NCBI GenBank assembly: GCA_018673485.1
Contig: JABHCP010000005.1
Location: 64,102 to 128,101 of the forward strand
Origin: Candidatus Uhrbacteria bacterium
GTDB taxonomy: Bacteria; Patescibacteriota; Patescibacteriia; UBA9934
Direction: 5' to 3'
DNA length: 64,000 bases
The notes under the pieces are model-generated. The model ran no database searches. It was not told the origin of the DNA and saw only the letters and a program-made list of their open reading frames with translations. Shown here one piece after another: positions 4,604 to 14,301 of this stretch. A program made the position numbers and the translations under genes. Numbering within the stretch: position 1 is the stretch's first letter; every line of letters begins with the position of its first letter.

Positions 4604-5200
4604 ATGGCGGGTAACTACCCTGTCACAGGCGACCAGTATCGCGACATCGATCGTCGCATGTCCGAGATCAAGCGCCAGCTCAACCAGGACGAAGGTAGTC
4701 CGTCGGATCCTGTAAGAATCCTTCTGGCACTGCAGGGCATCGTTGAAGGCAACTTCGACAACGTGCCCGTTGAGCGTCTGCCCATCATCGACTGCGACGC
4801 CATGCCCTTCATCCCTAACGGTTGGAGTGCAGTAGAGCACCGCAAGGGTGGTCAGATCGAGTTCGATCCGAGCAAGATCGTCCTTCACCTGGAGTCGGAG
4901 CAGCAGCGTAGCACGATCGTTGGCAATGAGCTTCGCAAGCGACTCGAGGGCCAGCCTGTGATGAACGCCAACGTTCTTGATCATCTGCTTGCTAACACCC
5001 GTCTCATCCCCGAGGACTGGAAGGCCGATGAGCAGGGGCGTATCCGCTGCATCTACTTCTGGGGCACCATCTACCGCGACTCCGGCGGCCGCCTGTACGT
5101 TCGTTACTTGTGCTGGAACGATGGTCAGTGGCGCTGGTACTGCAGCTGGCTCGACGATCCGTGGGACAGTCAGCGCCCGGCTGCCATTCTCGCGAGTTAG
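4604..5200 (+). CDS. hypothetical protein (198 aa) in a high-GC cassette; Trp/Cys-rich C-terminus
   Basis: aaaggaggttgtcATG Shine-Dalgarno; GC content far above neighbours; no recognised motif. Confidence 0.55.
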   Translation: MAGNYPVTGDQYRDIDRRMSEIKRQLNQDEGSPSDPVRILLALQGIVEGNFDNVPVERLPIIDCDAMPFIPNGWSAVEHRKGGQIEFDPSKIVLHLESEQQRSTIVGNELRKRLEGQPVMNANVLDHLLANTRLIPEDWKADEQGRIRCIYFWGTIYRDSGGRLYVRYLCWNDGQWRWYCSWLDDPWDSQRPAAILAS

Positions 5201-9883: not shown

Positions 9884-11278
9884 TTACTCAGCCTTCGCTT
9901 CTTCTGTTTTTTCTACTTCAGCTTCAGCTGGTGCTTCAGTCTTTGCATCGTCGGCAGGAGCCTCTACTTCTGCCTCGGCTGGAGTTTCAGTCGCTTCAGA
10001 TGTTTCGGAAACCTCTTCCTTAACCTCCGCAACCTCTTGAGATCCCTCCTCCTTCGCTAAAGCTACGGCGGACAGGTCGGCTTCGCTCGGGATGACGGCT
10101 TCTGGAATACTATTATCCGCTACCGTCACCTTTTCTTCCTTTACAACCTCTTCTGCCTTTACCGCCTTCTTCTCTTCCAGTGCTCTTAGAGAAAGTCCTA
10201 GTCTGTGTTCTTTTGGTTCGATTGATACAATCTTGAACTTTAGCACCTCACCTGACTTTGCAACCTTTGAAGGGTGGTCAACAGGGGATTCTGAAAGTTC
10301 TGAAATGTGAGCTAGTCCATGAATGTCTTTATCAAGCTCCACAAAAAGTCCAAATGGGTTGCTCTTAAGTACTGTTCCTTCAACAACATCACCAATCTTG
10401 TACTTTGTTTCAACATCAGCCCATGGGTCAGTCTTTAGCTTCTTCATTGAAAGGAAGATCTTGCTTCCATCTATTCCAATAATTTCAGCCTTTGCAGTTT
10501 CACCTGCTTTTAGAAGATCTCGTGGGTGATCAATTCTTTGCCATGCAATTTCCGAGATGTGAACCAATCCTTCGAGTGCGCCACTTGCGTCTGATCCTGA
10601 TGGAATGAACTTTACGAAAGCTCCAAAGTCGGCAAGTGCTGTGATTTCACCCTCAACAACGTCTCCAACGTTGATCTGTGAAATAACATTCTTTTGCTCT
10701 GACTCCCAAATTGTCTTTTCTGAAACAATTAGCTTTTCATCATCTATGTTCATGTCTAGAATCTGTACTCGCATTTTCTTACCAACAAAGCTTTTAAGCT
10801 TGTCGAGAATCTTTCCTTTATCACCACCGCTAACACGTGGGTAGTTTTCAGGAGCGAGTTGTGAAACAGGAAGGAATCCAGTGACGTGTCCAAGCTGAAC
10901 GATAAGTCCACCTTTGTTTGCGTCGAGAACTTTAACCTCAACTGGTTCGTTCTTTTGGAATTGTTCCTGCATGTCTTCCCATGCTTTCTTGTTACCAGCA
11001 AAACGGAATGAAAGTTCCATTTCTCCATTTTCATTTTCAAGGTCAACTACAGTTGCCTCTACTTTGTCTCCACGCTTTATGTTTCCGTAAGTTCCACCCT
11101 CGGTGAAAAGCTCACGACCTCGTACAACACCAGTAGTTAGTCCATTGATATCCAAGCGCACCTCACGTCCTTTAATAGATAAAACGGTGGCCTCAATCAG
11201 CGCACCGAGCTCGGGGACGTTGAGATACTGATCATTTTCCAATAAAGCGGAAAGCTGTGAATTCTGTGTATCTGTCAT
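9884..11278 (-). CDS. rpsA: 30S ribosomal protein S1 (four S1 domains) with an acidic Glu/Ala/Lys-rich C-terminal tail
   Basis: Repeated S1 OB-fold motifs (G.V.G.V..I..FGAFV, GLVHISE / GLAHISEL). Confidence 0.9.
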   Translation of the reverse strand: MTDTQNSQLSALLENDQYLNVPELGALIEATVLSIKGREVRLDINGLTTGVVRGRELFTEGGTYGNIKRGDKVEATVVDLENENGEMELSFRFAGNKKAWEDMQEQFQKNEPVEVKVLDANKGGLIVQLGHVTGFLPVSQLAPENYPRVSGGDKGKILDKLKSFVGKKMRVQILDMNIDDEKLIVSEKTIWESEQKNVISQINVGDVVEGEITALADFGAFVKFIPSGSDASGALEGLVHISEIAWQRIDHPRDLLKAGETAKAEIIGIDGSKIFLSMKKLKTDPWADVETKYKIGDVVEGTVLKSNPFGLFVELDKDIHGLAHISELSESPVDHPSKVAKSGEVLKFKIVSIEPKEHRLGLSLRALEEKKAVKAEEVVKEEKVTVADNSIPEAVIPSEADLSAVALAKEEGSQEVAEVKEEVSETSEATETPAEAEVEAPADDAKTEAPAEAEVEKTEEAKAE

Positions 11279-11387
11279 ATATTGTGCCTGGCGCCGACAA
11301 TATATAGATATTGCGGGCAGCAGGTATTAATAATTAGTTATTTGTTGAACGTCGGAAGTGTAGCGTTTTGGCCAAATATTGTCAATA

Positions 11388-11448
11388 TGCTAAGGTTCAA
11401 CCAATCCTGATGCGCACCTTTGCGCACATGAACATGGAGGTCAGGATG
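11388..11448 (+). promoter_or_regulatory. conserved leader of HAD paralog 1: hairpin ATCCTGA...ggaggTCAGGATg that pairs the start codon region
   Basis: About 90% identical to 12433..12494; the inverted repeat includes the start codon. Confidence 0.55.
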
Positions 11449-12351
11449 TCCTTTAAGATCGTGGGCGTAAAGTCGCTTGCAGAGCTCGAGGAGCTTTTGT
11501 GCACGAAGGGTGAGGACGAGCAGATTCTGGCTGTCAACCTTACCCTTACCAGTATCCAGAAGTTCTTCGCGGCTTTTGTGGCGGCGGTAGTGGCCGCATT
11601 TGACTTCGATGGCACTGTAACGGCGCATAGTCAGTTTACAGCTCTTCGTAACAACACGAAGACCATGACACGGGCCATGGCAGAGGAGGATGAGGCAGAT
11701 GCAATGTCGTACTTCGGTGGCGGCATTCTCTCTGACTACGGCCACATCTCGTTCATCTTCCGTACAGTTCGGCGCATGCTGTCTGCACGGTTGGATCGCA
11801 ATGACTTCAGGGAAGCAGTTACGGAGATCAAGCCGCGTCCTGGGGCTATTGAGCTGATGCAGACGTTTTTGCCACGGATGGCTGGAGCGATCGCTATCAT
11901 TTCTTACGGACTGTGGGACGTGATTCGTATCTGGACAGACTTCTACGCTTACCATGTTGTGCGTAGCGATGCGATCCACGCTCTCAAGCTTGATTGGAAG
12001 CGTGACATGCTTGATGGGTGTCAGCTCACCACTGTTGTCAGCGATGGCAACAAGGGCCATCGATTCGCTGTGCACTGCGCGCTCAATGAAGTGGAACCTA
12101 AGACAGCGATCGTGATCGGCGATTCACCCATTACCGATTTGTCCATGCTCCGTATGGGAATTGGTGTTCTGCTGATCCCCAATACCGAGAAGGTGTTGAG
12201 GAATATCAAGAAGCAGGAGGCGGAGATGCGCGCTGACCACCGTGTTGGCCCCTTCCTTGCACCTGCGTTCATGCATGTGCAGGCGTTTTTCCTCTCGGAC
12301 GATCTGACCCCGCTTGCGAAGATTCGTTTGGGTGAGATCACGTGTGACTGA
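11446..12351 (+). CDS. HAD-superfamily hydrolase-like protein, paralog 1 (high GC)
   Basis: Motif I FDFDGTVT, motif IV-like VIGDSPITD; ggaggtcaggATG Shine-Dalgarno. Confidence 0.6.
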   Translation: MSFKIVGVKSLAELEELLCTKGEDEQILAVNLTLTSIQKFFAAFVAAVVAAFDFDGTVTAHSQFTALRNNTKTMTRAMAEEDEADAMSYFGGGILSDYGHISFIFRTVRRMLSARLDRNDFREAVTEIKPRPGAIELMQTFLPRMAGAIAIISYGLWDVIRIWTDFYAYHVVRSDAIHALKLDWKRDMLDGCQLTTVVSDGNKGHRFAVHCALNEVEPKTAIVIGDSPITDLSMLRMGIGVLLIPNTEKVLRNIKKQEAEMRADHRVGPFLAPAFMHVQAFFLSDDLTPLAKIRLGEITCD

Positions 12352-12432
12352 TCCGATCAGTCAATTTCTACCCCGTGCTAGCCTCTCAGGCCGGCGCGGG
12401 TCTTTCGCTTTTTTTTGGGAAATGAAAAGGCT

Positions 12433-12494
12433 ATGCTAAGGTTCAACCAATCCTGATGCGCATTGTCGCGCACATGAACACGGAGGTCAGGATG
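12433..12494 (+). promoter_or_regulatory. conserved leader of HAD paralog 2 (same hairpin)
   Basis: See 11388..11448. Confidence 0.55.
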
Positions 12495-13412
12495 TCCTTT
12501 GATATCGCTGAGGCACACAATTATCTTGCATTGATCAATCGGATTGGGGACATGAGGGAGGGTGAGGTTTTGCTGGTTGTTAACCGGCAGGTTACGACGC
12601 CTGAGATTGCGCTTGCGGGCATTCGTGATGCTGAACTGTGTGTCTCGGACTATGATGACACAATGACACTTAAGGGTCAGTATCTGATTATGGGCGAACA
12701 TTTGATGCGCGATGGTCGTGGTGATGAGGACCTTGCCGATGCGATGCGGGTCTTTCACGGTCAGCATGTGACTCCTTCGGATGTGATGAGACTCATTGGT
12801 CGTTCTATGGGGCGGTTGATCGAGTCGCGTCTTGGGATGGCTGAGTTTCAGCATGCCGTGCAGCATGCAAAGCCTCGGTCAGGAGTTCATGAGCTTATCC
12901 TAAGCTTTGAGGATCAATCCAAGGTTGACGATCCATTTGTAGTCGTTACCTCTGGAACGCGTGATTGGGTTCAAGCCTGGGAGACACACTATTTGTCATT
13001 ACCATCTACCCTTCGAGTGCATGGCTTGAAGCTCAAGTGGAGTAAGGCTGGCGCCCGTCAGCTGCTTGGCTGTGATATTGAGACCATGGTTTGCGTGCAG
13101 AACAAGGCGGTCAAGGTTGCTATGGAGGCTACGCGTTGCAACCTTTCGATAGGTCAGGTTATGACGGTTGGGGATTCGCCACTGATCGACCAGACCTTGT
13201 TGACAGCCGAGTTGATTCGAGGATCTGACGGGCAGGTGGTTCGCCCTGGTGTGCATGGTGTGCTGCTGATCGAGGATTGTCAGACAGCTCTAAACCATCC
13301 GCATGGAAAGCACCATATGCGTGCGGCATTCGATGCTGGCGTGCCTATGTTCTTGATCTCTCCGTCGCTCGTGCCCCTCGCGCAGATTCGGCGTGGTGAG
13401 ATCACCGCGTAA
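12492..13412 (+). CDS. HAD-superfamily hydrolase-like protein, paralog 2 (diverged from paralog 1)
   Basis: Motif I SDYDDTMT, motif IV TVGDSPLID; same C-terminal ...IRxGEIT; same 3' element cccgtgctagcctctcaggccggcgcggg after the stop. Confidence 0.6.
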   Translation: MSFDIAEAHNYLALINRIGDMREGEVLLVVNRQVTTPEIALAGIRDAELCVSDYDDTMTLKGQYLIMGEHLMRDGRGDEDLADAMRVFHGQHVTPSDVMRLIGRSMGRLIESRLGMAEFQHAVQHAKPRSGVHELILSFEDQSKVDDPFVVVTSGTRDWVQAWETHYLSLPSTLRVHGLKLKWSKAGARQLLGCDIETMVCVQNKAVKVAMEATRCNLSIGQVMTVGDSPLIDQTLLTAELIRGSDGQVVRPGVHGVLLIEDCQTALNHPHGKHHMRAAFDAGVPMFLISPSLVPLAQIRRGEITA

Positions 13413-13623
13413 GATCCAAGCCCTGCTTGGATTAAATATCGTTTCCCGTGCTAGCCTCTCAGGCCGGCGCGGGATTGTTGCTTATAAAACAGTAGGCAGT
13501 AGGCAGTATGCAGCTGCGCCCTTCCGTAGCTTTAGCGAAGGAGGGTAGGCGGTTTTGGTAGCTTGCTTTATCGACTGTCTACCGTCTACTGCATACTGCA
13601 TACTTTTGATATACTATTCACGT

Positions 13624-14301
13624 ATGAATCACCCACACAAATCTTATTTGGACGAGTATAAGATCTCGATTGATAAACTTGTTCCTTTGACCCCTCCTGA
13701 AATCAGAGAAGAAGCTTTGAAATATTACAAAGAGCTTTCGGAGAATAATGACTCAACTGCTAAGCAGATCCATCAGGCTTTGAGCTTGATTGGTCGTAAG
13801 GAATTTCCTTATCGTAAGGCTTATGATGAGTTGTGTGCAGGGGACGAAGAGCAACGCTTGCAGGTATTGGTTTACGATCGGATCGATGAGAGCGTTAAGA
13901 AGAAAGTTCACTCAGTGGTACAACACGGCGTGATGCTTGATGACTTTGTATCAAGTGATATGTTCGAGGCTTTGGAGCCAGAGGAAAGATTGCAGATCGA
14001 TCAGGCGATATTGCTCGCCGAGGATACGCTGGACCACCAGTGTGATGAACGCGCACATAAAAAACAACAGCAGTACGAGACTTTGGTTGAGAATTGGAAA
14101 CAGGAATCATCTCGTTTGCAGGGGTTGATTGATAACTTGCGAGCAATGGGAGATCAGGATCAAAAATGGAAAGGAGAGATCGATAGCGTGTGCGATCGTT
14201 TGGAAGAAGGATGGTCGATTGTAGAGCGCGATCCGTCTGAGGAAGAGGTTAAAAAAGAACTTGAGTATTGGAATACAGTTTTGCACGAGACAGAGGAGTA
14301 A
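13624..14301 (+). CDS. hypothetical acidic, coiled-coil-rich protein
   Basis: Long ORF with low-GC codon usage; flanked by heptad CAG repeats. Confidence 0.5.
   Translation: MNHPHKSYLDEYKISIDKLVPLTPPEIREEALKYYKELSENNDSTAKQIHQALSLIGRKEFPYRKAYDELCAGDEEQRLQVLVYDRIDESVKKKVHSVVQHGVMLDDFVSSDMFEALEPEERLQIDQAILLAEDTLDHQCDERAHKKQQQYETLVENWKQESSRLQGLIDNLRAMGDQDQKWKGEIDSVCDRLEEGWSIVERDPSEEEVKKELEYWNTVLHETEE

Follow-up and report, generated by a model that had tools for sequence, protein, structure and literature searches.

The tandem HAD genes and their repeated flanks

A 64,000-nucleotide stretch of a Candidatus Uhrbacteria genome (contig JABHCP010000005.1, positions 64,102 to 128,101; hereafter the window) carries two adjacent genes, HAD-A and HAD-B, for predicted HAD superfamily hydrolases, whose coding sequences (CDSs) are strongly diverged and whose non-coding flanks are nearly identical. 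They lie in the following gene order: FtsH (−), S1 protein (−), HAD-A (+), HAD-B (+), a 225-aa gene (+) and a 396-aa gene (−). Counted from the ATG next to the Shine–Dalgarno (SD) sequence GGAGG, the two open reading frames (ORFs) are 301 and 306 aa long, the maximal ORFs being 327 and 318 aa. The features of the locus are as follows:

11386-11461, + strand: repeated 5′ module, copy A, with the promoter −10 box, the 5′ untranslated region (UTR), the SD, the start and the first codons; its blocks are also found in the loci L001, L004 and L005 introduced below
11388-11396, + strand: candidate extended −10 promoter TGCTAAGGT (TG-n-TAnnnT) of HAD-A, near-invariant in five leaders
11404-11410, + strand: 5′ arm ATCCTGA of the predicted helix P1, copy A, complementary to the P1 3′ arm
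11411-11426, + strand: predicted hairpin P2, copy A, TGCGCA-CCTT-TGCGCA, present in every predicted fold
11436-11448, + strand: 13-mer of copy A, made up of the SD GGAGG, the P1 3′ arm TCAGGAT (11441-11447) and the ATG (11446-11448)
11446-12351, + strand: HAD-A CDS, 301 aa, probably a distant HAD-IB or phosphoserine-phosphatase-like protein, above the cut-off of PF12710
12372-12416, + strand: 3′ module, copy A, with a GC-rich hairpin (12372-12400), a second small stem and a U8 run (12409-12416)
12432-12507, + strand: repeated 5′ module, copy B, the partner of copy A in the direct repeat D1 (91%)
12434-12442, + strand: TGCTAAGGT, copy B, the same extended −10 candidate
12450-12456, + strand: predicted P1 5′ arm, copy B
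12457-12472, + strand: predicted P2 hairpin, copy B
12482-12486, 12487-12493 and 12492-12494, + strand: SD, P1 3′ arm and ATG of copy B
12492-13412, + strand: HAD-B CDS, 306 aa, a diverged paralogue with DYDDT as motif I
13445-13483, + strand: 3′ module, copy B, with a hairpin (13445-13473) followed by ATTGTTGCTT, a weaker U tract

The affinities of the two proteins point to subfamily IB of the HAD superfamily, and more specifically to phosphoserine-phosphatase-like hydrolases: HAD-A scores 31.7 bits against the Pfam profile PF12710 (cut-off 27) and displays the motifs DFDGT (as FDFDGT), K203 and GDSPITD, and HAD-B, which scores 19 bits and so falls below that cut-off, displays DYDDT and GDSPLID. 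Weak NCBIfam matches to HAD-IB and SerB and weak matches to PDB phosphoserine phosphatase profiles were also recovered. As the initial annotation of this DNA had stated, the two ORFs are only distantly similar, with 29% amino acid identity (BLASTP, E = 1e-31) and with FDFDGT, DYDDT and GDSPxxD all in place. Both start with the codons ATG TCC TTT (MSF; 11446-11454 and 12492-12500); an MSF start is also seen in the distant family members P0006, P0009, P0014, P0019 and P0022.

Close relatives of these proteins are very rare. A hypothetical protein from a Candidatus Uhrbacteria metagenome-assembled genome (MAG), P0001, matches HAD-A at 100% identity, and the HAD-A gene is also found on GCA_018644925.1, contig JABGPN010000017.1. 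Word-index searches of 5.8 billion protein clusters yielded five proteins, among which are the HAD-A orthologues P0002 (68%) and P0003 (64%) and the HAD-B orthologue P0005 (72%). An exhaustive profile search with HMMER recovered 56 representatives of the family at E <= 1e-10, about 270-315 aa in length (P0006-P0061); a motif derived from the five close proteins gave 246 matches in genome contigs, none of them a relative. Protein identities are 64-71% between A orthologues, 72% between B orthologues and about 30% between A and B. In a distance tree of the family HAD-A and HAD-B are not sisters, and hence the duplication must be old relative to the split of the compared genomes.

The flanks of the two genes present a very different picture. 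A repeat search recovered two direct repeats: D1, of 76 nt (11386-11461 vs 12432-12507, 91% identity), in agreement with the earlier estimate of a leader of about 75 nt at about 90%, and D2, of 39 nt (12372-12410 vs 13445-13483, 90% identity), a 3′ element whose 29-nt core CCCGTGCTAGCCTCTCAGGCCGGCGCGGG is, as had been claimed, conserved, being 100% identical in both copies. The inverted repeat ATCCTGA/TCAGGAT reported for the leader is likewise present in both copies, where it overlaps the A and U of the ATG. The longest blocks of exact A/B identity measure 31 nt (leader) and 29 nt (hairpin), and the leaders lie 1046 bp apart. Aligned in sliding nucleotide windows, the two units are 87-93% identical over the leader and the hairpin and about 30-55% identical along the CDS; codon-aligned, the CDSs are 46% identical at the nucleotide level and 27% at 4-fold sites, so that the identity of the flanks is not typical of the duplicated unit as a whole. 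Pattern searches allowing <=3 mismatches revealed no third copy of the D1 or D2 elements in the window (shuffles expect 0.00), and the modules were not seen outside this HAD family in the window, the compared loci, JGI metagenomes or viral contigs: the leader pattern matched the window's own organism (L008) in the JGI metagenomes plus two chance sites, one within what is apparently a CDS and the other on a contig of high GC content, and had no match in viral contigs.

Conservation across genomes and probable concerted evolution within them

DNA bearing the leader was recovered around P0002 (L001-L003), P0003 (L004) and P0005 (L005), allowing an alignment of five leaders from three genomes: the two window copies, the A-type leader of L001, that of L004 and the B-type leader of L005. 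The invariant blocks TGCTAA.GT, AATCCTG, GCGCA, GCGC and GGAGGTCAGGATGT are separated by segments that vary in both sequence and length, and the orthologues from the two other assemblies retain TGCTAAGGT, AATCCTG, the GCGC hairpin and GGAGGTCAGGATG. Between genomes the leaders are 64-81% identical vs 29-51% at the 4-fold sites of the orthologous CDSs, which for the A orthologues are at or near saturation. By this excess over the 4-fold sites the leader is under purifying selection.

The relationships among the leaders run across those of the proteins. Of 26 variable columns, 8 are parsimony-informative for the window copies and the leaders of L001 and L005, and all 8 group the paralogues by assembly (window A with window B, L001 with L005) and 0 by orthology; the proteins, by contrast, group by orthology. 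Such discordance, with leaders clustering by genome and proteins by orthology, is what gene conversion classically leaves behind in paralogous segments, and we accordingly regard the flanks as probable products of concerted evolution. Unusually strong selection is not required for the near-identity of the paralogous flanks. Thus, the part of the initial annotation that saw strong selection on a translational control hairpin holds in so far as the leader is conserved above neutral sites, and has to be tempered in so far as its near-identity between the copies owes much to homogenization. At 31 and 29 nt, the longest exact blocks are roughly as short as homologous recombination allows.

The candidate promoter and start region of the leader

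The element TGCTAAGGT is kept in all five leaders but for a single G>A change, giving TGCTAAAGT (TAAAGT) in L005, and both forms fit a sigma-70 extended −10 element; a generic promoter scan that needs a −35 box does not call it. A parallel for such a promoter is seen at the neighboring 225-aa gene (13624-14301), which in five genomes lacks an SD and has no Pfam or NCBIfam match. In these genomes, which include the distant relatives L010 and L011 described below, a TAnnnT −10-like hexamer ends exactly 8 nt before the ATG (TATACT in the window, L001 and L004, TAAAAT in L010 and TAAGAT in L011), preceded by TG-n in three of the five (window, L004 and L010), within the following stretch:

Window 13607-13626; L001 ~1270-1291; L004 ~1349-1370; L010 ~4866-4886; L011 ~4872-4893: candidate promoter stretch of the 225-aa gene

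The distance of 8 nt to the ATG and the missing SD suggest that the mRNA of this gene is probably leaderless and that the promoter type is in use in the lineage. Transferred to the HAD genes, this geometry would place the transcription start at the first bases of the 5′ arm AAUCCUGA, i.e., at a predicted 11403-11405 for HAD-A and 12449-12451 for HAD-B.

At its other end, the leader finishes in the 13-mer at 11436-11448, which is invariant in 5/5 leaders and has only two exact copies in the window. Neither a seven-codon upstream ORF (MLRFNQS) nor an in-frame upstream ATG with its N-terminal extension MRTFAHMNMEVR is conserved in L001 or L004, and both were rejected, which indicates that the leader is non-coding. 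A TATGCT hexamer was discarded as the −10 box as its TA is not conserved.

The stretch TTGTCAAT upstream of copy A was also considered as part of the module and was assigned instead, as the −35 box, to an S1 gene promoter on the minus strand. This promoter, TTGACA-17-TACACT (11357-11385), agrees with the consensus at 10/12 positions and faces the S1 gene (9884-11278, −); its −35 box, the TTGTCAA just upstream of the HAD-A leader, is kept in the window, L001 and L009, another of the distant relatives. The S1 and HAD-A promoters would thus form a divergent pair within about 40 bp.

Predicted folding of the leader RNA

When the UTR is folded by itself, the minimum free energy (MFE) structure of four leaders (both window copies, L001 and L005; −15.1 to −16.6 kcal/mol) comprises P1, formed by AUCCUGA and UCAGGAU, and a stacked P2, the P1 pair probability being at least 0.9 (0.92-1.0 for the 5′ arm of copy A); in L004 the fold in which P1 is enforced lies at −13.7, i.e., 1.1 kcal/mol above an MFE of −14.8 that retains 5 P1 pairs. 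In the P1/P2 fold the GGAGG of the SD is unpaired in a loop and the spacer and the AU of the AUG are paired. The 5′ arm reads ATCCTGA in 4/5 leaders and ATCCTGC in L004, AATCCTG being kept in all. Across the five the arm-to-arm spacing varies (31-35 nt), as does the P2 loop in sequence and length (4-6 nt), around a fixed stem core GCGC/GCGC.

Among the 25 SD-bearing genes of the window, the predicted accessibility of the start region is 0.02 for both HAD genes vs 0.30-0.99 for the other 23. In L001 and L005 no more than 2% of the shuffles of the upstream sequence hide the start equally well, and the same is true of L004 with the 50-nt window only. The UCCUUU of codons 2-3 is also able to pair with the GGAGG of the SD in predicted alternative folds. 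The AGGAUGU at the start resembles a CsrA site; regulation of that type was rejected, as tblastn detects no csrA gene in the window.

The 3′ hairpin

The hairpin of the 3′ module has a GC-rich stem of 12-13 bp. Copy A folds at −22 kcal/mol (z = −2.55), and a terminator scan matches 12388-12403 and 12396-12408, with T-rich tails; copy B folds at −24.7 kcal/mol (z = −4.37), with 0/200 shuffles as stable. On these grounds copy A resembles an intrinsic terminator, a likeness that copy B and the orthologues, with their weak U tract, share in part. The variants of the hairpin are genome-specific: the two window copies do not differ from each other, nor does the copy of L001 from that at the head of L005, and five positions distinguish the window from the L001/L005 source. 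Over the four distinct hairpin sequences 92.9% of the cells of 14 pairs are standard; two pairs are changed on both sides (G:C to A:U and C:G to U:A), one A.C mismatch becomes G:U, and an invariant U:G pair is valid on the + strand only. These changes fit an RNA terminator or 3′ stabilizer, four sequences being statistically not decisive. In its GC-rich 12-13-bp stem and in the U8 run after copy A the element resembles rho-independent terminators at large; it differs from them in the weak U tract (ATTGTTGCTT) of copy B and the orthologues, and in a hairpin sequence unusually conserved between paralogues and across genomes.

Synteny and the closed 1046-bp contigs

A scan of species-representative genomes with the family profile yielded three distant relatives, L009, L010 and L011, which are 30-34% identical in an 11-sequence alignment. 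Each has one HAD gene (+), preceded by an S1-sized ORF (−) and followed by a homologue of the 225-aa gene (+), and in L010 and L011 an FtsH-sized (−) ORF precedes this block. The leader sequence and the 3′ hairpin sequence are absent from all three loci, and no called neighboring gene from any source has an integrase or recombinase Pfam match. The conserved synteny shows that the HAD is a resident gene; its being part of an integron or other mobile cassette is not supported. The GTDB records of L009-L011 are titled ‘uncultured Gammaproteobacteria bacterium’ though their ORF order matches that of the Uhrbacteria window: these MAGs may have been mislabelled taxonomically, or else the block may occur more widely.

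Three further contigs from independent assemblies, L014 (1-1187), L015 (1-1101) and L016 (1-1101), are closed cycles of exactly 1046 bp, with end overlaps equal to the assembler k (141, 55 and 55). They contain the HAD-A unit only (window 11386-12431), joined so that the A terminator and spacer run into an A-type leader and the A CDS. As exact identity between the A and B leaders does not exceed 31 nt, which is below k, a simple collapse of the assembly graph is unlikely. These contigs hint at tandem A–A copies or a recombination circle, with an artefact as the remaining alternative.

In the assembly that supplied L001 and L005 (ERZ24794666) the contigs end at shared sequence, with overlaps of 55 nt. 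The final 55 nt of L005 (1074-1128) are identical to the L001 sequence after HAD-A (1025-1080), and L005 1-22 encodes the C-terminal end of a further HAD protein (…RGEITV*), after which comes the same terminator. The last residues of P0002 may be chimeric, and the gene order in this assembly may be regarded as ambiguous.

A proposed shared expression module and its alternatives

We favor, with a probability of roughly 55%, the interpretation that HAD-A and HAD-B are separate tandem transcription units that share an expression module maintained by selection across genomes and by gene conversion within them. This module would have three parts: first, the extended −10 promoter TGCTAAGGT; second, a 5′ UTR of about 45 nt, whose first bases (A)AUCCUGA would pair with UCAGGAU, i.e., with the spacer between SD and start and the AU of the AUG, such that P1 closes over the GC hairpin P2 and leaves the GGAGG in a loop; and third, the GC-rich terminator-type hairpin at the 3′ end. 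Purifying selection would maintain the module across genomes, and gene conversion or unequal recombination between the exact blocks of about 30 nt, which lie 1046 bp apart, would homogenize its copies within a genome; such homogenization between the blocks would leave the flanks near-identical around CDSs of about 46% identity. The most likely outcome would be lock-step expression, in which both paralogues are transcribed and terminated alike, their mRNA 5′ ends equally protected and their translation initiation equally damped.

What has been observed is the repeat together with its conservation, the concerted pattern, and that the helix is thermodynamically plausible. Pairing of P1 and P2 in the RNA is not proven; the start-occluding helix is a reasonable component of the module that may or may not form in the cell, and its influence on translation or stability is likewise unproven. 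Several points weigh against this interpretation as a whole. The transcription start is a prediction, and P1 cannot form if transcription begins downstream of 11410. The initial annotation proposed folding both leaders and looking for covariation in homologous loci: P1 does stably pair the start in the UTR-only fold, but once the RNA context is widened to 85 nt or 12-30 nt of CDS are included, other folds compete, one of them pairing the SD with codons 2-3, and P1 drops to a probability of 0.01-0.3 in L004 and the two window copies; and neither P1 nor P2 displays covariation in the five leaders, the arms being invariant with no compensatory change and the GCGC being self-complementary. In L004, furthermore, the fraction of equally occluding shuffles rises to 0.485 with a 60-nt window. 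The distant orthologues have start-pairing helices of different sequence (0/200 shuffles in L010, weak in L009 and L011), yet the candidate −10 boxes TAAGGT (L011) and TGATAGGGT (L009) would leave the pairing segments upstream of the transcript; as these helices possibly lie upstream of their own promoters, we did not count them as covariation. Finally, the element is known from only three genomes, and L001 and L005, which come from one assembly at coverages of 6.2x vs 3.3x, are presumed to represent a single genome.

The invariance of both arms and the fragility of P1 in longer RNA contexts are equally what one would expect of a DNA-level operator, in which the inverted repeat AATCCTGA...TCAGGATG and/or the TGCGCA-N4-TGCGCA palindrome bind a co-repressing transcription factor and the RNA helix is incidental. 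The position of a palindromic GC-rich motif directly downstream of the candidate promoter is also in keeping with such a factor, and no covariation calls for pairing in the RNA. However, the arms are spaced at 31-35 nt and the palindrome half-sites at 4-6 nt, with a 1-nt shift in register: such variation alters the helical phase for a DNA-bound dimer and is irrelevant to stems, and hence favors RNA stems over a dimer on DNA. Moreover, the 3′ arm coincides exactly with the spacer between SD and start, and no regulator gene was called beside the locus. We therefore consider an operator unlikely.

Distinctly more doubtful is the view that nothing beyond neutral homogenization by short-tract gene conversion has shaped the flanks, the leader being an ordinary promoter and ribosome-binding site. 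It would readily explain the 8 vs 0 columns of the concerted pattern, the 31- and 29-nt blocks of near-minimal size for recombination, and the closed 1046-bp contigs, which suggest ongoing recombination between leaders. What it leaves unexplained is the conservation between genomes (leaders at 64-81% vs 4-fold sites at 29-51%), the coincidence of the conserved blocks with the complementary arms, the GC stem, the −10 box and the SD-start region, and a 7-nt complementarity at the start codon that is not expected by chance.

A bolder conception, which we hold to be about as doubtful, takes the modules as recombination handles for amplification, deletion or excision of HAD units, and the 5′ helix as a lineage-specific riboregulator of the Candidate Phyla Radiation (CPR) that is recognized by a trans factor. 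Were it to be true, the closed 1046-bp contigs of the A unit would represent genuine tandem A–A arrays or circles, and handles and riboregulator would together constitute a combined copy-number and translation switch for the phosphatase pair.

A riboswitch or RNA thermometer, in which a ligand or temperature opens the start-codon helix, is highly improbable, although it was one of the possibilities raised in the initial annotation. The start codon is indeed sequestered by the helix in the predicted fold, and the hairpin between SD and codons 2-3 that rivals P1 in longer contexts makes switching possible in principle. As regards a riboswitch, the junctions and loops vary in sequence and length and so offer no candidate ligand pocket, and a search of 11280-13650 against Rfam 15 returned nothing at E <= 10 except a chance snoRNA match within the HAD-B CDS, the whole window giving two tRNAs only at the gathering threshold. 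As regards a thermosensor, the SD is unpaired, unlike in the ROSE or fourU thermometers, and the predicted response of P1 to temperature is opposite among the orthologues, occupancy going up in both window copies and down in L001 and L005.

Hardest to credit is the proposal that the modules are the boundaries of mobile cassettes, i.e., recombination sites of an integron-like or other HAD-shuffling system, which would account for identical flanks around dissimilar cargo, for a closed A-unit cycle in three independent assemblies and for an array layout that is different or ambiguous in L001/L005 and L004, but is countered by distant relatives in which the HAD, though devoid of the modules, keeps its place between the S1 and 225-aa genes, by the want of recombinase matches among the called neighbors, by the confinement of the modules to this HAD family, by the behavior of the 3′ hairpin, with its G:U pairs, as an RNA element, and by the fact that ordinary homologous recombination between leaders accounts for the 1046-bp cycle.

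Precedents and significance

The finding of conserved regulatory and terminal regions around divergent bodies is real and already has precedents. In the erp genes of Borrelia burgdorferi (ospE/ospF-related, with the ‘upstream homology box’) dissimilar CDSs are preceded by a conserved promoter, operator and leader and are co-expressed, recombination being held to have put one promoter/leader onto many diverse bodies (PMC10016077). The HAD genes resemble them in having a conserved regulatory region upstream of dissimilar coding sequences. Erp proteins, however, are surface lipoproteins encoded on multiple cp32 prophage plasmids, in contrast to two chromosomal tandem genes for cytoplasmic-type HAD proteins; the erp region is a DNA operator for BpaB, BpuR and EbfC, whereas the present element looks RNA-structural; and the HAD pair additionally shares a conserved 3′ terminator. 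In Helicobacter pylori, babA, babB and babC have homologous 5′ and 3′ regions, a divergent middle and intragenomic gene conversion (PMC4552749). Here too the paralogues have like ends and unlike middles and are homogenized or shuffled by conversion, but the ends of the bab genes are coding, their loci dispersed, and the outcome adhesin and phase variation, whereas the ends of the HAD units are almost wholly non-coding regulatory DNA and the genes adjacent.

A third parallel concerns the predicted helix itself. Stem-loops at the 5′ terminus and 5′ UTR hairpins that occlude the start codon or the SD, such as the ompA 5′ hairpin of E. coli and translational operator hairpins, slow 5′-end-dependent decay and lower translation initiation. 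The helix predicted here likewise begins 0-2 nt from the predicted 5′ end of the mRNA and takes in the region of initiation; it differs in that the SD is single-stranded and only the spacer and the AU of the AUG are paired, and in that its host is a CPR bacterium.

Almost nothing is known experimentally of gene regulation in the CPR (Patescibacteria), for which this locus provides a compact and testable example: it supplies a candidate promoter type (TG-n-TAnnnT), a defined, though predicted, UTR structure at the very 5′ end of the mRNA and a conserved terminator hairpin, and the duplication of all three around two genes amounts to a natural ‘same context, different cargo’ experiment. The locus is also a clean instance of concerted evolution in regulatory DNA around CDSs that have diverged to the twilight zone, and can help to calibrate comparative screens in which strongly conserved non-coding sequence between paralogues is taken to mean strong selection. 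In practical terms its stakes are modest, with the element in few genomes and the phenomenon having precedents.

Other inverted repeats of the intergenic regions

A long inverted repeat of CAGTAGG-like repeats occupies 13485-13612, between the HAD-B terminator and the 225-aa gene, and folds at −50.5 kcal/mol (z = −3.75). Equally placed long hairpins of unrelated sequence are seen in L001 (1196-1285, z = −2.1) and L004 (1290-1362, z = −3.2), and in the latter locus a related ‘ctactgcctac’ arm precedes the HAD-A leader (~100-125).

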